DNA of 49,815 nucleotides from Candidatus Heimdallarchaeota archaeon. Lineage in GTDB: Archaea > Asgardarchaeota > Heimdallarchaeia > Heimdallarchaeales > Heimdallarchaeaceae. Below, piece by piece: positions 32,753-46,677 of the stretch (position 1 is its first letter; every line of letters begins with the position of its first letter). The notes under the pieces were generated by a model. The model saw only the letters and a program-made list of their open reading frames with translations. It did not search any database and had not been told where the DNA came from. Location of the stretch: NCBI GenBank assembly GCA_023705905.1, contig BPTK01000005.1:1-49815 (forward strand). Direction: 5' to 3'. The translations under genes were made by a program, and so were the position numbers.

Positions 32753-33283
32753 ATGGCAAGCTATAAGTACACTTTCAAGATTCTTTTACTCGGAGATGGA
32801 GCTGTTGGAAAAACAAGTCTTGTTCAAAGATTTATACACAACAAATTCCAATCTGGTTATCTTATGACAATCGGAATGGAACCATATTCAAGATTTGAAA
32901 CTATCAAAGATACAAGAATATGCCTCCAATTATGGGATATTGCAGGTCAAGACCGTTTTGCTTCAATGCGACAAATCTTTTTCAAAGGTAGTTTAGGGGC
33001 TCTTGTTACATACGATATTACTCGACGTCAATCTTTTGAGAATCTTAAGACATGGATAAAGGAAGCTCAAAATGAAAGTCCTCGCATCATGCTTATGCTT
33101 GTAGGTAATAAAAACGATTTAGAAGATCTTCGTGACGTTTCAACAGAAGAAGGAAGAAAATTTGCTAAGGAATCTGGGTGTATTGGTTTTATTGAAACTA
33201 GTGCAAAAAACGGTGCAAATGTTGCAGAAGCTTTCATAACAATGGGAGAAGAAATCCTTACAGGTGTAGAAAGCCAAGATTAA
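32753..33283 (+). CDS. Rab/Ras-like small GTPase (Asgard-type)
   Basis: G1 GDGAVGKTS, switch I TIG, G3 WDIAGQDRF, G4 GNKND, G5 ETSAKNGANV. It is very close to the eukaryotic Rab consensus and has no C-terminal Cys. Confidence 0.85.
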   Translation: MASYKYTFKILLLGDGAVGKTSLVQRFIHNKFQSGYLMTIGMEPYSRFETIKDTRICLQLWDIAGQDRFASMRQIFFKGSLGALVTYDITRRQSFENLKTWIKEAQNESPRIMLMLVGNKNDLEDLRDVSTEEGRKFAKESGCIGFIETSAKNGANVAEAFITMGEEILTGVESQD

Positions 33284-33892: not shown

Positions 33893-33980
33893 TGGTGCCG
33901 CGAGCCGGAATTGAACCGGCACCTAAGGAATTTTGCTGATTATCCACAATCCTCAACGCTAACCATTACGCCATCGCAGC
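33893..33980 (-). tRNA. tRNA-His (anticodon GUG) with 13-nt intron at 37/38 and encoded CCA
   Basis: - Folded by hand. The acceptor stem is GCUGCGA/UCGCGGC.
- The D stem is GCGU/GCGU with loop AAUGGUUA.
- The anticodon stem is GAGGA/UCCUU.
- The anticodon loop is UUGUGG^...^U.
- The T arm is GCCGG-UUCAAUU-CCGGC.
- The discriminator is A, followed by CCA.
- The intron AUAAUCAGCAAAA forms a 4-bp helix (UUGU with GCAA), flanked by the 3-nt bulges GGA and AAU. This is a bulge-helix-bulge fold. Confidence 0.8.
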
Positions 33981-34080: not shown

Positions 34081-34560
34081 ATGGGCGCTGGTAAAATTAT
34101 TGTACAATTGCATAACTTCAGCAGTATCAACCTTTGTCGAGAATTTGCTAAGATTTCATTAGGTTTAGGTGCAAGAGACATAATTTTCACAAAAGCTGTG
34201 GGAACTGGTGCTACTACAGGTGTACCAATGGCACAAAAGTTAGCACATGCAAAGAAAGCTAATGTTTTGTATCTTCAAGAAATAGAAGATGCTATTGAAC
34301 TTGCTTCACCTGACGAAGTATATTTATTCATTAAGCGACCTTTCTCAAAGGAAATTTTTAACCCAGATAATATCATTGAATCTTATAAAGGAGGAAAAAC
34401 TATTCTGCTCATCTTTGGTGGAGCTGATCCAGGCATAACAAAAAGAGAGTTAGAGTTAGGCGTTCCCGTTTACTTCAATAAGGTTAAGGATCTAGGTTGT
34501 TTAGGAGAAGTAACCTTGTCACTTTATTTATTAAGAAATCTAATTGAAGAAGAGGATTAA
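34081..34560 (+). CDS. Conserved archaeal protein, possibly DUF531/SPOUT-like
   Basis: KIIVQLHNFSS.....EFAKISLGLGARDIIFTKAVGTGATTGVP.AQKLA pattern recalls the archaeal DUF531 family (often mis-annotated as a RecB-family nuclease). ATG at 34081; the longer track ORF begins inside the tRNA promoter region. Confidence 0.45.
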   Translation: MGAGKIIVQLHNFSSINLCREFAKISLGLGARDIIFTKAVGTGATTGVPMAQKLAHAKKANVLYLQEIEDAIELASPDEVYLFIKRPFSKEIFNPDNIIESYKGGKTILLIFGGADPGITKRELELGVPVYFNKVKDLGCLGEVTLSLYLLRNLIEEED

Positions 34561-35093
34561 ATTACATCTTCTTCCTGAATGATCAACCTAACTAGGTTTG
34601 TGAATGCTACTTCTGCATTAGTTCCATTTTTAGCAGAAGTAAAAAGAAATTCTGCATTAGTGTGATCTTCAACAATTTTCTTCATATCCTCTTCTGTTAC
34701 TTGAAGTTCAGCAAGATCACATTTGTTTGCCAAGAAAATAATGGGTTTCACCCCTACCACCTCAATAAACGATTCAACCCAAGATTTGAGGTTTTCATAA
34801 GTAGTCATGTTTGATGCATCACAGACTGCAAGAGCGCCTTTACTCCCAAAATAATACTTGCTTCTAACCTTTTTGAATACATCTTGACCCCCTACATCCC
34901 AAATTGCTAAAGTTACCAAATTATTAAGATATTCTACTTCTTTCTTCATTATAGTTGTTCCTAGAGTAATCTGATATGAAGGATCAAACATATTTGTAAC
35001 AAATCGCCTAACTAATGATGTTTTACCTACTCTTGCATCACCAATAAGTACTATTTTACTTGTAGAATGTATTTTCTTGGACACAAATCTCAC
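34557..35093 (-). CDS. Rab/Ras-like small GTPase (Asgard-type)
   Basis: G1 GDARVGKTS, G3 WDVGGQDVF, G4 ANKCD, G5 TSAKNGTNAE. There is no C-terminal Cys. The apparent start is GTG, with no in-frame ATG before the P-loop. Confidence 0.85.
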   Translation of the reverse strand: MRFVSKKIHSTSKIVLIGDARVGKTSLVRRFVTNMFDPSYQITLGTTIMKKEVEYLNNLVTLAIWDVGGQDVFKKVRSKYYFGSKGALAVCDASNMTTYENLKSWVESFIEVVGVKPIIFLANKCDLAELQVTEEDMKKIVEDHTNAEFLFTSAKNGTNAEVAFTNLVRLIIQEEDVI

Positions 35094-35145: not shown

Positions 35146-36000
35146 TCACTTCTCGGAATAAAAAGCAGCTGAACCATATCCTACAACACTACTTCTATCA
35201 CCTGATGTATCGCCTGAAGTCGCATATTGTAGAAGCTTAGCTTGTTTTCTTCCCATTCTCTTAGCTGCTTCAATAGTTCCAGCTATTGGTCCAATACCGC
35301 ACATTGAAACGGTTAATCGGGATTTAATATCATACATCTCTTTCGTATTCATCTGTTCAATGGCTTCCAATATCAGATTGTCCTTCTTAGTGGCGATGCT
35401 ATGAGATTCAAAGTGTGTGAAATCACTACTTGCTATAACAAGAACATTTTTTCCATGACTCACCTTTGCTATAATCTCACCAAGCACCATACTCGCATCA
35501 TAACTTTGATTGAGTAAAACAATTGGTACAAAATTAAATGGTTCATCGAAGAGATATTGTAAGAAAGGAAGTTGAACCTCTATCGAATATTCACGCGCAT
35601 GAGAATCATCGCTCTTTCGTATTAAGCTTGAGTAATTTACTAGTTCTTCAATTAGTTCATGGTTAACTTCAACTTCACCTAAAGGAGTTCTCCATGATTC
35701 AACCTTGTTTGGGACTCCTATATCAGCACCGAATCCAGTATGATTAGGACCAAGAATTATTACAGTGCTAGGAGGAGGGTATTTGCTGAGTTCCAAATAA
35801 CTCCATGCTGCGACAGGACCACTATAAATATAACCTGCATGTGGGACTAAAAGGAAAGGAAATAGGCCAGTTTCAACTGGTTCCTTATGAGGGAGCTGTT
35901 GAGGACCAAGAGAACTTGTGAAACTGTTTTCAATTGCTTCGTTGAGACCATCTGAATTACCAGGATAAAACGAACCCGCATATTGAGCGTTCCTTATCAT
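35146..36000 (-). CDS. MEMO1-family protein (AmmeMemoRadiSam system protein B)
   Basis: R.A.YAGSFYP N-terminus, VPHAGYIYSGPVAA, SSDFTHF and CG.GPI motifs typical of the MEMO / extradiol-dioxygenase-B-like fold. Confidence 0.85.
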   Translation of the reverse strand: MIRNAQYAGSFYPGNSDGLNEAIENSFTSSLGPQQLPHKEPVETGLFPFLLVPHAGYIYSGPVAAWSYLELSKYPPPSTVIILGPNHTGFGADIGVPNKVESWRTPLGEVEVNHELIEELVNYSSLIRKSDDSHAREYSIEVQLPFLQYLFDEPFNFVPIVLLNQSYDASMVLGEIIAKVSHGKNVLVIASSDFTHFESHSIATKKDNLILEAIEQMNTKEMYDIKSRLTVSMCGIGPIAGTIEAAKRMGRKQAKLLQYATSGDTSGDRSSVVGYGSAAFYSEK

Positions 36001-36041
36001 ATGTTGACAAATGAATTAATGAATAAAAAGTATGCCCTCAA

Positions 36042-38387
36042 CTAAGGGATGATATGAAAGTCTAGTTGCATATTTTTCATAAGTGAAACTGTTTTTTGCC
36101 CTTCTTCAGAACTTAGTGGTATATTGTTAATCTGACATATTCTTATTACATCTTTTCCTTTATCCTTCGTTTTCTTGAAGTAATCTTGTATGGTACTTAA
36201 GATAAACATCATATTGTGATCATCACTAAATTCAGGTAAAATTTCTATATTGTTTATGTATTCTACTTTCTGTTGTTTTTTGAAGTGAAGAGCAGCGACA
36301 GGTTCTTCATTCTTAAGAATAAGTTCCGCAAAGTCTGTTGGCATAGATCTAAGAAAGAAGGATCTAAGTTTGAAACGTTTAAGGAGATACTCTTTGTATA
36401 ATAGAATTAAAGGATCTGTTCTTGGCAGATAAACAAAATTTACCCCACTTTTATCATGTGGTTCCTCACTTTTCTGATAAACATAAGCAGTGATAGACTC
36501 TTCTATTACCTTTGTTGTAAACTGCACATCACTCTCTTCTTCAAGAAATCTTCCTGTTCGAACGTTCTTTGAAGCAATTAGCTCCTTAAGATATACTTCC
36601 AATTGAGTGTTAGAAAGACCAGTAAGATTAGCTAATTGCCTAATAGAGAGTGGTAAGTTGGAGGACAGTATCCTATAAATGATTTCTAACCACGCATCTC
36701 GCTGTGAATTTACAGATTTTGGCTTTAACGTACTCAAAAACTTAGAAAGAGACAACCATATTACTTGATTTGAAATATTTTTGGTTTGAATGATTTGGCA
36801 TGTAGATTCTAGACGATGCAAAGCTGATAATAGTACTCTATCAGATAGATTCAACGAGCTTTTAAGTTGTTTAAAATTCACTTTTTCCTTCTGTTTAATT
36901 ATATTGAGAGCTCTTTCCTCTAGTACACCCACATTTCTCGCAGGACTAAGTTTTGCATAATAAGAATAATCTTCTGAATTGATTAACCCTCTAGGAAAAC
37001 TGCTATACTTACCCCGAACAATTTTTCTATCAATTTGCATCTCATTCAAAATGTGTTCTTTTCCGGTAGAGATACGGATCAACAATGATTCATAGGAAAG
37101 AGGGATGCCAATAAAAGATAAGCTTCTAAGTAAATCAGCTTTGGTAACTATTTGTTTGCGTTTAGTAAGGAAATGATTGTCTATAAGTAAAGGAAAGACA
37201 TCTTGAATTGAGATGGATTCTTTGTTTCCTTCAGGTTTGGTCAATTTAGAACGATGATAAGCTAATCCAGAAGAACTTAGAACATAACCACGTTGTTTTA
37301 GAGTATCCACAAAGGAACGAGATTGATTTTCCAGTAGTTCAGACTGCATTTTGGGGAAAACAAGGATTTTCCCTTTATTCTCTGAAAATTCTTGTATTTT
37401 GTTTTGTATTTTTTCTTCAAGAGGAATGAATGCTGAATTTTTGATAAGATTGATAACGTGTAACTTATCACCAATTACCTTGTAATCAAATGTACAAACA
37501 GGTTTTCCAGAAACAAACACAATTTCTTTTTGAATGTCTTGAAGTACTGTAAAATCTGCTGAAGACCAATATATTGAATATGGATCTGTAGCAGGAAGAA
37601 TCTCGATTTGATAGGAATTTTCCTTTGTCTCCTTTTCATCAAACTCCTTCAAAAATTCTAATTCATCAGCAGCGAGAAATCCTTCATAACTGGAATTCTC
37701 AATGAAAGGTCCTCTAACTATTTTTTTATTCTCATATAATTCAATTATACTTGTACTTATTCTGCTTCCAGATAAATTAAGGATGGACATAATCTGAGGT
37801 ACAGTTATCGGACCAAAATTCTTTATGACAGTATAGATTAATCCTTGGATGGCAGACGATTGACTTTTGGATTCTTCCTTAAGCAACATCTCAGAACTGT
37901 ATATAGTCCAGCGGGTACCATCGTAAAACATGAATACTTGAAAATTTATCCTTAGTTCAGAAAGTATTTCCATTACATCTTCTTTCTTTAATTTGAACTG
38001 CTCGATAATTCTTTGTCTTGTTGATGAACCGTGTTCCTTTATGAATTCCAAAATGTTTTTTGTTTGTGGCTTCTTGTAATCTATTTCCTCTGAAATGTTG
38101 CTATAATAGAGTAGATCAAGATTTTCTCTTCCAACGTAAGCCAGTTTTCCAGATATGAACGGTGCCTGGATGAGATGTTTGTTTTTTATTAAAGATGGAA
38201 TTAAAGTGTGAGAAAAAGTGCGCATTCTAGCAAATAATGATTCGGGATCTTGGAATTGAACAAGGTTATTCAATATTGATATCGCATGACCGTAATTAAT
38301 CCCTTTGAATTCAGTGGATAAATTCTGTTTCTCAGATATGTAAAGAGATAACTCTTCTAGGTTTAATGAGATTTGTGACACAGACAT
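36042..38387 (-). CDS. Multi-winged-helix protein with two YcaQ/AlkZ-like modules
   Basis: At least four wHTH units (e.g. ILEFIKEHGSSTRQRIIEQF, IYTVIKNFGPITVPQIMSIL, IIYRILSSNLPLSIRQLANL). Two (L/Y)LP(A/R)TDP motifs (EILPATDPY, VYLPRTDPL) recur as in the helicase C-terminus. The ATG directly abuts the helicase TAA. Confidence 0.6.
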   Translation of the reverse strand: MSVSQISLNLEELSLYISEKQNLSTEFKGINYGHAISILNNLVQFQDPESLFARMRTFSHTLIPSLIKNKHLIQAPFISGKLAYVGRENLDLLYYSNISEEIDYKKPQTKNILEFIKEHGSSTRQRIIEQFKLKKEDVMEILSELRINFQVFMFYDGTRWTIYSSEMLLKEESKSQSSAIQGLIYTVIKNFGPITVPQIMSILNLSGSRISTSIIELYENKKIVRGPFIENSSYEGFLAADELEFLKEFDEKETKENSYQIEILPATDPYSIYWSSADFTVLQDIQKEIVFVSGKPVCTFDYKVIGDKLHVINLIKNSAFIPLEEKIQNKIQEFSENKGKILVFPKMQSELLENQSRSFVDTLKQRGYVLSSSGLAYHRSKLTKPEGNKESISIQDVFPLLIDNHFLTKRKQIVTKADLLRSLSFIGIPLSYESLLIRISTGKEHILNEMQIDRKIVRGKYSSFPRGLINSEDYSYYAKLSPARNVGVLEERALNIIKQKEKVNFKQLKSSLNLSDRVLLSALHRLESTCQIIQTKNISNQVIWLSLSKFLSTLKPKSVNSQRDAWLEIIYRILSSNLPLSIRQLANLTGLSNTQLEVYLKELIASKNVRTGRFLEEESDVQFTTKVIEESITAYVYQKSEEPHDKSGVNFVYLPRTDPLILLYKEYLLKRFKLRSFFLRSMPTDFAELILKNEEPVAALHFKKQQKVEYINNIEILPEFSDDHNMMFILSTIQDYFKKTKDKGKDVIRICQINNIPLSSEEGQKTVSLMKNMQLDFHIIP

Positions 38388-41300
38388 TTATTTCACCAGG
38401 TTATATGCGTTAAAACCATTTATTTTTTTGATAGTAACTATAGGCGTACTACTATCGTGTGAGGGAGAAATGGTTTCTATTGCATTAATTATATAATTGA
38501 AAGATCCCTCATTCTGAACCCAAGGAGCAATATTTAGATCCTTAACAATAAGTTGTTTTTCATTACTTGATTCTATTTTGCATTGAGCCGCTAATTTTTG
38601 GTTCAGTAGAATTAGATAGTTGTCTCCAGAAATATCGAATCTTTCAGGCATGTTATTTCTTAACAAAGAATGAGCTACATCTGTAGGATGTAGAACATAG
38701 AATCTTCCTCTATCCTTATCCGAGACATACTCTCTTGATACTTCAAACTGTTTCTCGTACATAATTAGGTCATCATAATTATTTGAAGTGATATAGTAAA
38801 AACTCAAATCATCCTCAATGAACCTTCCACCAAATATTTCTTCGTCTCCAATTAGATTAGATAATATTTCCTTAATTTTTATTTTTGTCAAAATAACAGG
38901 AATGAATGCACGTTCAATTATCTGGCTCTCAGAAGATAACCCTAAGCTAGAAACTATATCTCTTACATATCTTCTTTTGAGAACTGTTAAATCATCATCA
39001 AATTCTGGGATGAAATTAGAGACATCCCAATACTCTTGAGGGAGATATGTGTTGCTAATTGATTTTACGCCAATAAGCATGTTCGTTTCCAATATCCGCA
39101 AAGAAGGTTTTAATGTTGCACCTGCACCTGTCCACTTATGAGATAGATCTTGAATGTTTGAAGTTCCTTTAGTTATAAGTTTCAAGAGTTCCTCGTGTTC
39201 TGTTTTGAGTTTTCTTCTTTTTCTCAGACCACTTTTTCTATACCGAGCAAATGTCAAAGAGAATAATTTACCATCTTGACAGAGAATTTTCTTTTCCTCT
39301 AATAATTTGTTAATTATGAAAGCAATTATTGCATGCATTGTCTCTGGAAATCTTGTAATAATCACCTCAAAACTGAGCACACCAAAATGGTTGATTAGTG
39401 ATAATAAACTGCTTTCATTTAGTGCAGGAGAATCTTTCCTCAACCAAACTTTGTCCATAACATACTTGGTTACAATGTTTCTTGTGAAGATGCGTGTGAT
39501 TGTATCTCCACCCACTAAAGTATCTTGAATTAGAATAAAACCTGTTTTAATCAAAGAATCTTTGATGAATTTATTCACTGTTGAGAGAACTGATTTTCCA
39601 TTTATATCCTCTATTTGTAAACTGAGAACACGATGAATCTTTCTCGTATAAGAAACAAGTTCTGATGCGATTTTTTGAAGTAATAGGAAATTGTAAGCAA
39701 CTATATCATCAAGTTGCAAATTATAGATTTGTAGATACTTCCCTCGGTGAAGTTTATACTCAACTGAACCAACAACCTCGCCATCCAAAAGAATAGGATC
39801 AATTTTCCCTTCTCCATAAACATCTCGGATGTGAAGTCTTAACCCTAATTTCGTAAATGGATCAGAACGTGGAAGGATGAGTGTTTTCTCATCTTCGTGA
39901 AGAGAAAGATTGATGAAATCTGCTTTTAGTTTACGGATGGTTTCAAAACGTTTAGGAGTCAAATAGTAATTAGTTTCTCTAGTTGTGAGTTTCTTTTCGA
40001 TTATTTTCTTCTTTTTAATTAAATCACGAATGTGTTTCTCAACATCACTATACTTGAATCCTGAGATGTGTGTGAGCTCAATCAAGGATACAGGACCTAA
40101 CGATTCTATTAGTTTATTCAAGATGAATTGGATGCTTTTGTCATAGTCAGGCAATTTATCCAAAGTGAAATACCTGGATGAGATGTCATAAACATTCGGT
40201 ACAAATTGTTTTGGTAGAAAGGAATCAATGGCAACAGACTTTCTTACCAGATGAAGTGTTTTGTCAAGAATCATAATGCTTTCTTGTACTATATCCTCGT
40301 CAAGATCGATATATTCAACCATCTCTCTTCTTGTCATGGGTCCATATCTTTGAAGAGTAGCAAGAATTTTCTCCTCAACCTTAGACAATTCAAACGTTTC
40401 TCTGTATGCCACATAATAATAGGGGAAATGTTCTCTACTCACATAGGACAATCTATTATGACTAAACCTTCCTTGAATGATTTCGTTTTTTTCAACAAGC
40501 TCTCTAACCCAATCAATATCGTAATCTTTAATTCTAAATGCCAAAGAACTCAAATCTGCTATAGAACCAAAGTCATCTAACAGATACAATATACTTTCTT
40601 TTCCAATAAGAGCTTGTTTAAAATAAGTATCAACAGTGAAATAATAGTGAACAAAATTCAATTCTTCTGAAGTTAATAATAACGAATCTTGTTTTCGATT
40701 ACTCAAATTCCTTAGCAGTTCTCTATCTTCAAGTCTAATGAATTGAGGTTCTAGGGTGGAGGCAATAATCTGTCCTTTTAGAATCTTATTCTTTTGCTCT
40801 AACTCTACAAGGGTTCTTGATATTTTCTCTTGGTCTAGAAGAAGGTATTCAACTATATCACTCGCTGATGAAGGACCATTGATTTTCAGATATCGCAAAA
40901 CAATGTTCTCCAAACAAACCTCAGGATCTAGTTTTCTTGCTTTTTCTCTGAATGATTCTGGAACAAAATCTTCTATTGAAATATATTTCCACGTTGTTTT
41001 TCCTTTATATGACTCAAAATCGATTCGTGTCACGAGAATCGAGCGTTCAAGCCTCTCTAGACTTGACTTAACCTCTTGTTTCGAGAGTTCTAAATCCATC
41101 GAGATTTTTGTAGATGAAATAGGAAATTTTTCTTTGACTAAATCAAGAATTTGTTTGTCTTTCTCTGAAAGCTCAATTGACTGTACATATATGTTCCAAT
41201 AGAGTGGAAAATCCTCCAAAGATATAGTTCTTCGTTCTGTTTGAGAAAGATAAATCTCCATGAACTCTTTATTATTGTGAAGAGCAAAAACCCACGATTT

Positions 41301-44114
41301 AATTTGTTTGGGGTTAGAAATACAACGATGATATATGCTAGGAGGCATACTCTCGATTGTTCTTATTGGAGAAATTGCTTTAATAGCACGCCTCAACTGT
41401 TTTAGAGAAGAGATTGGAAGCTCTTCATTTCTGTAGCTACGATTATTAAAAATACTATCTACTAAATCCTTCCTGAAAAGTATCTCTTTTGTGCCTTCCT
41501 TTCCAAAAACCTTTGACAGAACTTGTTGATGTAATTCTCTTAACAAAGCACTTCTATCAGAAATCTGAACAATATCGGCTATACCTAATAGAACAATACC
41601 ATGGGCAAAAGGACTTGGAATATCTGTTAATGGAGCTATTTTGTATGTGTATTCTCCTTTTTCTAATTTCTTAATTACAGTTTTAGAATTTTCTAAATCC
41701 ATGTAATCTCGTAGGATTTCACGATATGTTTCTTTAATAATGCAGAAAGAATCTTGCGTTTTTAGAGTTGGGAACAATCTTCGTGCATACATAGTTTGCC
41801 TAGAAACAGGAATGTATTTGTTGCCGCTCCTTCTTAAAATCATAAAAGCTCTATTTGCAACATGTCTAAATCGAGTTTGGAAAAGCTCAGTGTTTATGAT
41901 AGCTTGCTTTACAAGATTTTCTAGATTATCCGAAGCAATCAAAGTTGGGATGACCGAAGTATCATAGATTTTACCAGTTGGTAACATCAACAAGAAACCG
42001 TTATCATTAACAGCTGAAGCTACATCAGCATCAATATCTCTGCCAATAGAAAAAGCAAATGCTCGTGCAAGAGCATCATTGACTCTTCTTCCAAAATAAG
42101 CATGAAAAATGATAGTCATTCTTCCCTGAGGATCCAAAAATGACTCTATTAGGATAGATTTTTCGTTTGGTATAATATTCAAAAAGAGTTGCTGTTCTTT
42201 TACATAATCAACAATAGTTTTTGCGATAATTTCATCGACTCTAAATGATGCTTGAATCCATTCTATTGTTTCTTTGGTATTCTCTTTCTGAATTCTCTGG
42301 GCAACAACATCAATAAATCTACCAATTTGTTGGGATAACTCAAATGATCGAGGTAACTCTTCTCCAACCCAATTAGGTATTGTTGGTCTTCTTCCGAAAG
42401 ACTCAGATACCACTACTCGTGATCCAACAGTTCTTTTGAATTGGTAAGAATGACTTCCTAATACAAAAACATCTCCAGGAGTAAGTTTTTCAACAAATTT
42501 TTCAGAAAGAACCCCTATTCGAGTCCTATAAGTTTCAAGTTCGACTCTGTAATTCGAATTTTCAGGAATTGTACCTATATTTGTATAGAATATTAATCGA
42601 GAATTCCTCTTTTTTCCAAATGCTTTTTCTTTATGATCATACCAGATCTTTCGATAAACTTTTTTCTCTTCAATATCTAGATTATATCCACCCAGGTACT
42701 CTAAAACATTAATATAATCGACGAAACTGAGTGTTCTGTAATTATATGAACGCTTAATCATCGTGTAAGCTTCATCTACGTTCCATCTTTTTGTTATGGA
42801 TATTCCAACTATAAACTGAGCAAGAACATCAAGACAATTTTGAGGAATCTGTACTTTATCCAACACATGACTATAGGCACTTTTTGTAAGCACGGCACAT
42901 TCTATAGCATCATCTCTACCAGTTACAAGGAGTCTTCCACGAGCTATCCTATCAAGAGCATGGCCACTGCGCCCAACTCGTTGAAGATATTTTGCCACTG
43001 TCTTAGGAGAACCTATCTGTGAGACTAGCTCAACACTTCCTATATCTATCCCCAATTCCAAGGAAGTTGAAGTTACAGCTGCAATTAACTCATTATTTTT
43101 CAATTTATCTTCTACATCTAACCTAATTTCTCTCGATAAACTAGAATGGTGAACAGCTATCAGAGGTGTATATTCATCTCCTAGAAACTCTTTGAGTTTG
43201 AAAGCAACACTTTCTGCTCCTTTTCGCGTGTTTGTAAAAATTATCGATGTTTCATGATCTAAAATTAAGTCAGCTAAAACAGAATATATCCCTTCTTGAA
43301 CCTCAACATAGGGGGTATGAAGCAAATCTTTCACCGGACTTATTACTTCAAGATCTAGTTTTCTTTGTGGTGGAAGATTAGCTATGTAGCAATCGTTCTC
43401 TACACCATTATCATCTCTTCCAACAAGAAAACGAGCTATTTCTTCTATAGGTGCTTGTGTTGCAGATAATCCAATCTTAGTATATTTTTTCTCAACAAGT
43501 TGAGTTTGAAGATATTCTAAACACAAAGATAGGAAAACGCCTCTCTTGTTTGAACTAACTTCGTGAATTTCATCTAATATAACCCAACGAACGCTTTTTA
43601 GATGTTGAGAGAACTTAGGTGAAGTAAGTATTAGACCTAAACTCTCAGGAGTTGTGATTAGTATATGGGGAGGTGTTTTCAACATCCTCGAACGTTGAGA
43701 TTGGGGAGTATCTCCTGTCCTAACATCAACCCTAATCTTAGGAACAACAATATTATTTGCTGCAGCAAGATCTTGAATACCTTGCAAGGGTTCCTCTAAG
43801 TTCTTTCTGATGTCATTTCCTAAAGCTTTGAGAGGAGAAATGTAAAGGACATATATCTGATCTTTCAAGTTCCCTTTAGTAGACTCAATGTAAAGCTCAT
43901 TAATTGCAGATAGAAAAGCTGCAAAGGTTTTCCCTGAACCAGTTGAACTAAAAATAAGTGTGTTTTTCTGCTCATGTATAAGCGGTATAGAATATAATTG
44001 TGGAGGTGTAAAACCTGCGGGGAATCTAGAAGTAAACCAATCTTTTATTTCCTCAGCTAGGAAAGAGAAGATAGAATCAGCCGAGGAGGGGTTATCTAGA
44101 TAATGCAGTGTCAT
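38388..44114 (-). CDS. Giant Lhr-type superfamily-2 helicase with ~1000-aa C-terminal winged-helix array
   Basis: Motif I SSTGSGKT (aa 56-63), II DEIH (181-184), III SAT (217-219), VI QRVGRSGH (378-385). Lhr WH and domain-4 region (PQNCLDVLAQFIVG, LTPGDVFVLGSHSYQF) extends to about aa 860. At least seven wHTH units follow, with LILPRSDPF (aa 1412-1420) and YVLHPTD (aa 1806-1812). Confidence 0.85.
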   Translation of the reverse strand: MTLHYLDNPSSADSIFSFLAEEIKDWFTSRFPAGFTPPQLYSIPLIHEQKNTLIFSSTGSGKTFAAFLSAINELYIESTKGNLKDQIYVLYISPLKALGNDIRKNLEEPLQGIQDLAAANNIVVPKIRVDVRTGDTPQSQRSRMLKTPPHILITTPESLGLILTSPKFSQHLKSVRWVILDEIHEVSSNKRGVFLSLCLEYLQTQLVEKKYTKIGLSATQAPIEEIARFLVGRDDNGVENDCYIANLPPQRKLDLEVISPVKDLLHTPYVEVQEGIYSVLADLILDHETSIIFTNTRKGAESVAFKLKEFLGDEYTPLIAVHHSSLSREIRLDVEDKLKNNELIAAVTSTSLELGIDIGSVELVSQIGSPKTVAKYLQRVGRSGHALDRIARGRLLVTGRDDAIECAVLTKSAYSHVLDKVQIPQNCLDVLAQFIVGISITKRWNVDEAYTMIKRSYNYRTLSFVDYINVLEYLGGYNLDIEEKKVYRKIWYDHKEKAFGKKRNSRLIFYTNIGTIPENSNYRVELETYRTRIGVLSEKFVEKLTPGDVFVLGSHSYQFKRTVGSRVVVSESFGRRPTIPNWVGEELPRSFELSQQIGRFIDVVAQRIQKENTKETIEWIQASFRVDEIIAKTIVDYVKEQQLFLNIIPNEKSILIESFLDPQGRMTIIFHAYFGRRVNDALARAFAFSIGRDIDADVASAVNDNGFLLMLPTGKIYDTSVIPTLIASDNLENLVKQAIINTELFQTRFRHVANRAFMILRRSGNKYIPVSRQTMYARRLFPTLKTQDSFCIIKETYREILRDYMDLENSKTVIKKLEKGEYTYKIAPLTDIPSPFAHGIVLLGIADIVQISDRSALLRELHQQVLSKVFGKEGTKEILFRKDLVDSIFNNRSYRNEELPISSLKQLRRAIKAISPIRTIESMPPSIYHRCISNPKQIKSWVFALHNNKEFMEIYLSQTERRTISLEDFPLYWNIYVQSIELSEKDKQILDLVKEKFPISSTKISMDLELSKQEVKSSLERLERSILVTRIDFESYKGKTTWKYISIEDFVPESFREKARKLDPEVCLENIVLRYLKINGPSSASDIVEYLLLDQEKISRTLVELEQKNKILKGQIIASTLEPQFIRLEDRELLRNLSNRKQDSLLLTSEELNFVHYYFTVDTYFKQALIGKESILYLLDDFGSIADLSSLAFRIKDYDIDWVRELVEKNEIIQGRFSHNRLSYVSREHFPYYYVAYRETFELSKVEEKILATLQRYGPMTRREMVEYIDLDEDIVQESIMILDKTLHLVRKSVAIDSFLPKQFVPNVYDISSRYFTLDKLPDYDKSIQFILNKLIESLGPVSLIELTHISGFKYSDVEKHIRDLIKKKKIIEKKLTTRETNYYLTPKRFETIRKLKADFINLSLHEDEKTLILPRSDPFTKLGLRLHIRDVYGEGKIDPILLDGEVVGSVEYKLHRGKYLQIYNLQLDDIVAYNFLLLQKIASELVSYTRKIHRVLSLQIEDINGKSVLSTVNKFIKDSLIKTGFILIQDTLVGGDTITRIFTRNIVTKYVMDKVWLRKDSPALNESSLLSLINHFGVLSFEVIITRFPETMHAIIAFIINKLLEEKKILCQDGKLFSLTFARYRKSGLRKRRKLKTEHEELLKLITKGTSNIQDLSHKWTGAGATLKPSLRILETNMLIGVKSISNTYLPQEYWDVSNFIPEFDDDLTVLKRRYVRDIVSSLGLSSESQIIERAFIPVILTKIKIKEILSNLIGDEEIFGGRFIEDDLSFYYITSNNYDDLIMYEKQFEVSREYVSDKDRGRFYVLHPTDVAHSLLRNNMPERFDISGDNYLILLNQKLAAQCKIESSNEKQLIVKDLNIAPWVQNEGSFNYIINAIETISPSHDSSTPIVTIKKINGFNAYNLVK

Positions 44115-44192
44115 CTGATGATATCAAGATAACTTTTCACTATAAATAGGATATTATTACTAAGTAAAAATACTTCACATGGTATATGAGCA

Positions 44193-46107: not shown

Positions 46108-46677
46108 TTATCTCATCATCTGGGTATCAAGTTCATTTACTAACCAGATGAAAGCTTCTTTGATACCTTTACCATGTAAAATACTGGTGTCAAAAACAGC
46201 AAAAGTTCTATCTTTGAGATCAAGATGCAATCCTAGCATTTGAATGAGGAGAGGAGCTTCAACAGCACCAGGAAGATCTTGTTTATTTGCCATAATTAAA
46301 GTAGGAACATTTTCCATGTAAGGATTATTGAAAACATGAGTTTTAAGAACATCTCGAGCTTCTGGAAGACGCTCAATGTCAGCAGCATCAATAACAAAAA
46401 TAACGGCGGAACAGCCCGGATAATGAGCTTCCCACAGGAATCTGAAGTGTGATTGTCCTGCTACATCGATTGCTGTTATTGTCCAACCTTCAAATTCAAA
46501 GGATTCTATATTTTGTCCTATTGTTGGTGTAAGATTTTCAGCGAATTTCCCAAATCTCATAAAACGTGTCAAAGTAGTTTTTCCTGCCGCATCTAACCCC
46601 AGAATCAGGATTTTTGCCTTTTGTTCCTTCTTCAGTTTTGTTCTTAACCAAGAGGAAAATGACCCGAACATACTCAT
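46108..46677 (-). CDS. Arf/Arl-like small GTPase (Asgard-type)
   Basis: N-terminal amphipathic segment (FGSFSSWLRTKLKK), G1 GLDAAGKTT (identical to eukaryotic Arf), G3 DVAGQ, G4 NKQD, and a C-terminal G.G..EAF.WL. Confidence 0.85.
   Translation of the reverse strand: MSMFGSFSSWLRTKLKKEQKAKILILGLDAAGKTTLTRFMRFGKFAENLTPTIGQNIESFEFEGWTITAIDVAGQSHFRFLWEAHYPGCSAVIFVIDAADIERLPEARDVLKTHVFNNPYMENVPTLIMANKQDLPGAVEAPLLIQMLGLHLDLKDRTFAVFDTSILHGKGIKEAFIWLVNELDTQMMR

Follow-up and report, generated by a model that had tools for sequence, protein, structure and literature searches.

The question raised by this locus is whether two abutting reading frames of an Asgard archaeon encode a giant helicase of an undescribed kind, in one polypeptide or in two, and what its long tail might do. 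The window is a DNA stretch of 49,815 nucleotides (nt) from Candidatus Heimdallarchaeota archaeon (GenBank assembly GCA_023705905.1, contig BPTK01000005.1, positions 1 to 49,815). It is AT-rich (GC content about 34%) and carries a minus-strand open reading frame (ORF) of 1908 amino acids (aa) at 38388..44114, referred to here as p1, which encodes an Lhr helicase, and an adjacent minus-strand ORF of 781 aa at 36042..38387, referred to as p2. Lhr is a widespread repair helicase with a large C-terminal domain (CTD) that is partly understood. This domain drives tetramerization in mycobacteria (PMC8053096) and has uracil glycosylase activity in Escherichia coli (PMC10953399). The best explanation overall, and one that we regard as fairly probable, is that the pair constitutes a conserved two-gene DNA-repair unit of the Heimdallarchaeaceae, in which a long aLhr2 and a two-module paralogue would be produced in a coupled manner and would form a heteromeric platform.

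Architecture of the helicase and its partner

The two proteins and their junction can be divided into the following features, given with the evidence on which each is based:

41496..44114 (-): Lhr helicase core, p1 aa 1-873, with RecA1, RecA2, WH_Lhr and domain 4 (DEAD_assoc); NCBIfam, Pfam
40671..41495 (-): tail segment t0, p1 aa 874-1148, three winged-helix units; AlphaFold model, Pfam, Foldseek
39507..40670 (-): tail module A, p1 aa 1149-1536, three winged helices and a beta domain, AlkZ-like; Pfam, hhalign, model
38391..39506 (-): tail module B, p1 aa 1537-1908, three winged helices and a beta domain, AlkZ-like; AlphaFold topology, hhalign
38393..38397 (-): GGTGA, resembling a Shine-Dalgarno sequence, 5 nt ahead of the p2 start codon and within the final Lhr codons (L-V-K)
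38385..38390 (-): stop-start junction TAA-ATG, 0-nt spacing, p1 and p2 in the same frame
37233..38387 (-): N-terminal AlkZ-like module of p2 (p2N), aa 1-385; AlphaFold model, Foldseek, loop conservation
36045..37232 (-): C-terminal AlkZ-like module of p2 (p2C), aa 386-781; secondary-structure order as in p2N, hhalign

The initial annotation, made from the sequence alone, had placed an Lhr core at aa 1 to about 860 of the first protein, and this core is confirmed by a match of 1056 bits between p1 aa 8-873 and NCBIfam PRK13767 (ATP-dependent helicase; cutoff 849). Pfam matches DEAD, Helicase_C, WH_Lhr and DEAD_assoc in p1, and motifs I, II, III and VI of superfamily 2 (SF2) are intact (GSGKT, DEIH, SAT and QRVGRSGH). 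The protein is an SF2 helicase of the Lhr family (aLhr2, PRK13767), and the orthologues encoded by Heimdall genomes are 1900-1916 aa long.

The AlphaFold model of the p1 tail, built from a family alignment (mean predicted local distance difference test score, pLDDT, 86.0; predicted template modelling score, pTM, 0.71), contains nine winged helices arranged as 3+3+3, where at least seven such units had been counted initially. The first three, in t0, appear as helix-helix-helix-strand-strand units at tail residues 22-267; t0 has Pfam matches to AlkZ-rel, MarR_2 and WH4_Lhr, and it corresponds to the WH2-WH3 sub-domain in the CTD of bacterial Lhr. Module A contains ILPRSDP (aa 1413-1419) and ILLDGEVVG, and p1 aa 1181-1530 spans positions 18-299 of the 329 in the Pfam AlkZ-like profile; D1418, the aspartate of its LPxxDP motif, is invariant in 60 long Lhr proteins. 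Module B contains YVLHPTD (aa 1806-1812). In the full-length protein, AlkZ-rel (38.7 bits) and AlkZ-like (29 bits) both score above their Pfam gathering thresholds. A Foldseek search of the tail model against the PDB returns the mycobacterial Lhr CTD first (7lhl; expect value, E, 3.1e-11; about 700 aligned columns; target-normalized template modelling score, TM, 0.53-0.56), followed by 9zd6 and 5uuj. The model thus places p1 among full-length Lhr proteins with a CTD (bLhr-HTH). At the sequence level, the module A profile reached 9zd6 only at E 0.0056 among PDB sequences (WH2 to the beta domain), below MarR proteins.

The second protein is predicted to consist of two modules, each with three winged helices, an LPxxDP strand and a beta domain (family-alignment model; mean pLDDT 83.7, pTM 0.52). 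The first, p2N, contains EILPATDP (aa 262-269) and a conserved loop, Q44-F45-Q46-D47-P48-E49-S50 (window positions 38238-38258); the second, p2C, contains VYLPRTDP (aa 652-659) and, in its third winged helix, an invariant TGLSNTQ. The top Foldseek matches of whole p2 in the PDB are AlkX/YcaQ (9zd6; E 2.4e-11; target-normalized TM 0.67), AlkZ (5uuj; 4.2e-11; 0.66) and 7lhl (1.3e-9). For the p2 and p1-tail models together, the AlkZ-family matches (9zd6 and 5uuj) range in E from 2e-11 to 2.5e-9 and in target-normalized TM from 0.66 to 0.68. The p2 of the window has sub-threshold winged-helix matches alone in Pfam, PF06224 is reached at E<0.01 by 16 of 30 p2 family members, and the p2 family profile found Z-alpha-type winged-helix proteins alone among PDB sequences (E>0.1), with no glycosylase. 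Structure prediction was therefore needed to link p2 to AlkZ.

The recurring motif noted initially is present in all four copies (I1413-LPRSDP and V1807-LHPTD in p1, I263-LPATDP and Y653-LPRTDP in p2), and this LPxxDP motif is the family signature; LPxxDP and LLDGxxVG are the equivalents of LSPFDP and LLHRGQLVG in YcaQ, where the superfamily has an LSPFDP-type strand and an LxxGxxVG hairpin. Profile-profile comparisons with hhalign relate p2N to p2C (E 6.6e-13, 312 columns), p2N to module A (E 2.9e-18) and p2C to module B (E 4.1e-13, 351 columns). As judged from these sequence profiles, the four modules of about 350-390 aa are mutually homologous over nearly their whole length, beyond chance. 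BLASTP aligns p1 aa 1178-1900 collinearly with p2 aa 38-755 (E 8e-12), and the two lines of evidence together identify p2 as a copy of the two-module portion of the tail of the helicase and a paralogue of its last approximately 730 aa. The initial annotation had proposed a YcaQ/AlkZ (HTH_42) fold in the extension and in the 781-aa protein, in four tandem copies spread over two polypeptides; the Pfam scores of p1, the hhalign comparisons and the structural matches of both models (9zd6, 5uuj and 7lhl, E 1e-9 to 1e-11) bear this out, and all four modules can be assigned to the HTH_42/AlkZ-like superfamily at the level of the predicted fold.

The two ORFs, correctly described at the outset as contiguous and in the same frame, meet at CTG GTG AAA TAA ATG TCT, where the p2 start immediately follows the p1 stop. 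The junction was compared across 35 related loci, 31 of them belonging to Heimdall genomes or metagenomes and four to distant lineages, and takes the following forms:

25 Heimdall loci: TAA or TAG, then ATG at once, same frame
L019, L020 and L040: 6-nt spacer, GTG start
L034 and L037: TAAAATG, 1-nt spacer, p2 in another frame
L006: 8-nt overlap (ATGAGTGA), p2 in another frame
L032: longer spacer, p2 in another frame
L009, L010 and L011 (distant): spacer of 68, 43 or 10 nt
L043 (distant): 22-nt overlap

The initial annotation left open a single 2690-aa product, either interrupted by one nonsense codon or made by read-through, and suggested comparing orthologues for fused and split forms. The shared frame without a spacer, in the window and in most Heimdall loci, would be expected if the TAA were an assembly error, a recent nonsense mutation or a site of programmed read-through, but this seems extremely improbable, given that the Lhr gene ends in TAA or TAG in 35/35 related loci, that the second gene is out of frame in four Heimdall loci and preceded by a 6-nt spacer and a GTG start in three more, that the distant pairs are spaced by 10-68 nt or overlap by 22 nt, and that p2 orthologues are of constant length (771-789 aa in 33 clusters, 43-94% identity). 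The stop in every related locus and the second genes in other frames or at a distance indicate, from comparison of these sequences, that the TAA is genuine and that the family-level arrangement is one of two cistrons, which excludes a single read-through protein. Frame breaks were also seen inside the Lhr gene in L001 (7440-7510, after about aa 1179) and L002 (2985-3220, about aa 950); they lie at differing positions, so that a conserved split within the gene was rejected, and are probably assembly errors or sporadic lesions.

The other option raised initially, tight coupling, is consistent with the near-zero spacing. Termination-reinitiation in archaea requires very short distances or overlaps, and gene pairs spaced in this way are enriched for subunits of heteromeric complexes (PMC10666635); the conserved overlap or very short distance places Lhr and p2 among such putatively coupled pairs. 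The sequence TTGGTGAxxTAAATG is present in most loci, and any ribosome-binding role of its GGTGA would be inseparable from the coding constraint on the Leu-Val residues.

Distribution and known relatives

The premise of the initial annotation that archaeal Lhr proteins consist of the core only proved wrong; its probable source is a description in which bacterial Lhr has the C-terminal region and archaeal Lhr does not (Buckley et al., 2020; PMC7437997). Methanomassiliicoccales aLhr2 proteins with an additional HTH_42 domain and Thermoplasmatales aLhr2 proteins with an extended C-terminus have been reported, and four Heimdallarchaeota are known to encode aLhr2 (Hajj et al., 2021; PMC8301817). 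A protein-database search with full-length p1, of which the best 120 clusters were listed, returned about 75 clusters of proteins of approximately 1790-1805 aa (Methanomassiliicoccales/Thermoplasmata wherever the source was named), all but one with a precomputed PF06224 match, and 21 Heimdall clusters plus other Asgard Lhr proteins of 1895-2648 aa. Archaeal Lhr proteins of 1790-2650 aa with PF06224 amount to the order of a hundred clusters among the matches listed. Their database names are "ATP-dependent helicase" and "Lhr-like helicase", with one Asgard protein called "DNA glycosylase AlkZ-like family protein". The giant helicase, which the initial annotation did not recognize as described, is thus not new: the class is common in databases, and its fusion to HTH_42 has been published. 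Such abundance was among the findings that the annotation itself had named as refuting its reading.

The Methanomassiliicoccales proteins of 1790-1805 aa are collinear with p1 (33-41% identity) to at least aa 1560-1600 or so by BLASTP, with coverage of up to 99% of the length. The Thermoplasmata long Lhr also has two AlkZ-like modules (module A versus module B, E 4.8e-21), as in p1, whereas the published description reports one Pfam HTH_42 domain and no tandem duplication (PMC8301817). The Heimdall p1 is about 100 aa longer, and no p2-like neighbour was found at the two Thermoplasmata-type long-Lhr loci examined. Four Asgard Lhr proteins of 2344-2349 aa (P0076, P0079, P0081 and P0082) have the same core and tail as p1, and P0082 aa 1155-1922 is matched by the p2 family profile (E 3e-64); these proteins carry three fused AlkZ-like modules in one chain, in contrast to the two in cis and two in trans here. 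Further Asgard variants occur in the same set (P0080, P0089, P0092, P0093 and P0097), and some Asgard variants bear inteins (PF14890/PF14528).

Bacterial full-length Lhr (bLhr-HTH; 1507 aa in Mycobacterium smegmatis, 1538 aa in E. coli; 7LHL) has the same core, followed by winged helices and an AlkZ-like module, and the AlkZ catalytic motif is absent from it and from the p1 tail alike. Relative to this bacterial protein, p1 adds a second complete AlkZ-like module (about 370 aa) and there is a separate two-module paralogue. The interstrand-crosslink glycosylases AlkZ and YcaQ (AlkX) (HTH_42, PF06224; 5UUJ, 9ZD6) share the module order of three winged helices, LPxxDP strand and beta domain, and VLSPFDP ... 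LPLLHRGQLVGRMD of E. coli YcaQ correspond to ILPRSDP ... ILLDGEVVGSVE of p1. AlkZ and YcaQ are single-module monomers of about 370-410 aa with a (Q/H)-phi-(Q/D) motif, whereas the modules of p1 and p2 occur as tandem copies or as part of a helicase, with no conservation of the motif.

Few proteins belong to the p2 family: scanning 1.84 billion representatives in full with HMMER (E<=1e-3) yielded only 52, comprising the Heimdall p2 clusters, Lhr tails and about a dozen stand-alone proteins of 700-814 aa. Each of the four stand-alone proteins that were looked up is encoded immediately after a long Lhr (1806, 1916 and 1946 aa, one truncated). The p2 gene occurs in 29 GTDB species genomes, nearly all labelled Heimdallarchaeota, and is always beside an Lhr gene where the contig extends far enough, including in the complete genomes of Ca. 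Heimdallarchaeum aukensis and Ca. H. endolithica. No description of a tandem AlkZ-like tail or of a p2 partner was found in the searchable literature, and both the double AlkZ-like module and the coupled tandem-AlkZ-like partner appear to be undescribed.

Several of the related loci have repair genes or other unusual genes nearby. The Lhr gene of about 1787 aa at one Thermoplasmata/Methanomassiliicoccales-type locus (L004, 11431-14990) is followed by genes for an HTH_3 protein, an OGG-type glycosylase, AP endonuclease 2 and a 509-aa multi-winged-helix protein, in what looks like a DNA-repair neighbourhood. A PolX-like helix-hairpin-helix gene lies directly upstream of a distant pair of long Lhr and p2-like genes (L009, 500-1981), and a gene for a DNA_alkylation repair protein lies near the Lhr-p2 pair of a Heimdall genome (L006, 14480-15229). 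In a Heimdallarchaeota metagenome-assembled genome (MAG), the end of a 6003-aa ORF that has no Pfam match lies a few kb from the pair (L008, 14429-18367).

Catalytic loops and proposed mechanism

The motifs of HTH_42 glycosylases are Q-phi-D (YQL), (Q/H)-phi-Q (AZL) and (H/Q)-phi-(S/T)-(D/E) (AZL2) (PMC9040887), and in YcaQ the catalytic Q45-I46-D47 is in the loop after the second helix. The equivalent loops were located from the order of secondary-structure elements and weak alignments, not by superposition, and mapping through Pfam coordinates differs from this by about five residues. With this limit, the loops read:

p2N of the window: QFQDPES
p1 module A: SIAD (D, N or S among orthologues)
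p1 module B: VLSF
p2C: IPLSY
distant p2-like P0178: YFSDD
distant p2-like P0180: MFASS
Thermoplasmata module A: x-phi-D
Thermoplasmata module B: LRSD(F/Y)E

Modules A, B and p2C lack a polar (Q/H)-phi-(Q/D) motif at the topologically equivalent loop. The check for QxQ or QxD residues suggested in the initial annotation was therefore negative for these three modules and ambiguous for p2N, which reads QFQD and in which position 44 is Q or H in just 6 of 30 family members; the remainder of its loop is well conserved (F45 30/30, Q46 28/30, D47 27/30, E49 30/30 and S50 30/30). Because the catalytic motif is not conserved, glycosylase activity of the modules is, on sequence grounds, unproven. Lost AlkZ residues are no proof of lost catalysis, however, since the E. 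coli Lhr CTD is an active uracil-DNA glycosylase without QxQ, with its active-site Asp-1536 in the last beta hairpin (PMC10953399). An equivalent of this aspartate is not evident: in a manual alignment of E. coli GLDWG with TLVGG of module A and GLAYH of p2N, the position is V or A, with no acidic residue. A C-terminal QLDF of p2, considered as a match of the E. coli GLD1536WG, is probably a coincidence, as the last hairpin of p2 is cut short, by secondary structure, at its first strand, whereas D1536 lies in the second. Alignments by hhalign of the module profiles with the single YcaQ or E. coli Lhr-CTD sequences were not significant, and runs with -glob gave meaningless end-to-end alignments.

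A strongly conserved GGLRSD(F/Y)E occurs in the second AlkZ-like module of long Lhr from Thermoplasmata, in the loop that topologically matches the AlkZ catalytic loop (alignment tail columns of about 715-725), and could be a variant active site. A search of the PDB with a profile of the first winged helix of the first Thermoplasmata module yielded nothing relevant.

According to the explanation that we favour, gene 1 encodes a long-form, aLhr2-type Lhr with an SF2 3'-5' translocase core, a region resembling the bacterial CTD with one AlkZ-like module and then a second module, and gene 2 encodes the two-module tail paralogue, released as a separate 781-aa protein. Given the abutting stop and start codons, p2 would most likely be translated by termination-reinitiation, with a fixed p1:p2 stoichiometry as the result. 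The two proteins would form a heteromeric complex, in which the four AlkZ-like modules would act mainly as a platform for the helicase, serving assembly and the binding of DNA lesions or DNA structures, by analogy with the homotetramer of the bacterial Lhr CTD. That CTD comprises five winged helices together with a beta barrel; the catalytic residues of AlkZ are missing from it, and its putative DNA-binding surface is occluded (PMC8053096). Only p2N may keep, at most, a plausible glycosylase active-site loop. Some points weigh against this explanation: the interaction of p1 with p2 is a prediction based on analogy; the Thermoplasmata long Lhr has the same two-module tail and, at two loci, no p2-like neighbour, so that the partner is not obligatory for this type of helicase; the spacers and the overlap in the four distant lineages indicate that tight coupling is not universal; the activity of the E. 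coli CTD without QxQ means that loss of the AlkZ motif is no proof of lost catalysis; and the mapping of the catalytic loops rests on topology and weak alignments. A more specific version, which we put forward tentatively and consider unlikely, would have the Lhr tail and p2 assemble 1:1 into a pseudo-tetrameric AlkZ-like platform, with p2N (x-F-Q-D-x-E-S) as the sole catalytically competent base-excision site. If true, the four-module ring of the bacterial homotetramer would be reproduced within one helicase and one partner, and lesion recognition or excision in Asgard archaea would be split from translocation into a stoichiometrically coupled accessory subunit.

Alternatively, the pair could be a helicase-glycosylase machine in which at least one of the four modules is active, unhooking interstrand crosslinks as AlkZ/YcaQ do or excising uracil as E. 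coli Lhr does, and is delivered by the helicase to stalled forks. This is possible but rather doubtful. The fold matches to AlkZ and AlkX/YcaQ, the activity of the E. coli CTD, the Asp kept at the equivalent loop in Thermoplasmata modules A and B, and the repair genes near related long Lhr genes (OGG and AP endonuclease, PolX-like and DNA_alkylation) would all be consistent with such a machine, and Q44-F45-Q46-D47 of p2 formally fits (Q/H)-phi-Q, with Q46, D47 and E49 conserved in the Heimdall p2 family. However, Q or H at position 44 is the exception in this family, the loops of the distant p2-like proteins and of modules A, B and p2C depart from the motif, the Asp-1536 position is V or A in module A and p2N by manual alignment, and the search of PDB sequences with the p2 family profile returned no glycosylase. 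It is much less probable that p2 is an autonomous multi-winged-helix transcription regulator merely co-located with the helicase gene; the Pfam fragments of MarR_2, HTH_24 and HTH_5 and the name "GbsR/MarR family" given to some members by the Joint Genome Institute (JGI) point in this direction, but the full-length architecture is that of two AlkZ-like modules, each with a beta domain, and not of a MarR dimer, p2 is paralogous to the tail of the helicase itself, and it is strictly adjacent to a long Lhr in every lineage that has it.

Gene neighbourhood and significance

The order Arf, RsmB/PUA, GNAT, Lhr, p2, Memo, Ras and DUF2122 is syntenic across Heimdall loci, and in the window p1 and p2 are accompanied by genes for GNAT, RsmB/PUA, Memo, a DUF2122 nuclease and three Ras/Arf small GTPases; p2 is 94% identical to its counterpart in a Heimdallarchaeota MAG. 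This identity and the set of neighbouring genes assign the window to the Heimdallarchaeaceae. A TATA-box-like element was read from the sequence upstream of the Lhr gene:

44141..44146 (-): TTTATA, about 29 nt upstream of the Lhr ATG

The Memo-like gene (35146-36000, minus strand), which always comes next after p2, has a TATA-like TTTTTATT some 27 nt before its start codon, within 36001-36041, which suggests that it has a promoter of its own. The TATA-like elements before p1 and before Memo suggest a bicistronic Lhr-p2 transcript with its own promoter, possibly leaderless or with a short leader. Ras/Arf small GTPases are a hallmark of Asgard archaea; the three genes lie within 14 kb, at 32753-33283 (+), 34557-35093 (-) and 46108-46677 (-). 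A tRNA-His gene (GTG anticodon; 33893-33980, minus strand) is located between a cytidylyltransferase-like gene and the DUF2122 nuclease gene. Two plus-strand ORFs antisense to the Lhr gene, at 40251-40580 (109 aa) and 40756-41202 (148 aa), are presumed to be spurious.

This locus does not represent a new kind of system, as the helicase class and its HTH_42 fusion are known and abundant in databases. What it adds, together with its relatives, is that the long Lhr of archaea has two AlkZ-like modules instead of one, and that module number differs among lineages: bacteria have one, Thermoplasmata two and some Asgard archaea three in a fused chain, and the Heimdallarchaeaceae have two in the helicase and two more in trans. 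The Heimdallarchaeaceae and a few other lineages have kept a dedicated coupled paralogue. The pair is, thus, a natural system for asking whether the AlkZ-like array of Lhr is a catalytic unit or a unit of assembly and DNA recognition.

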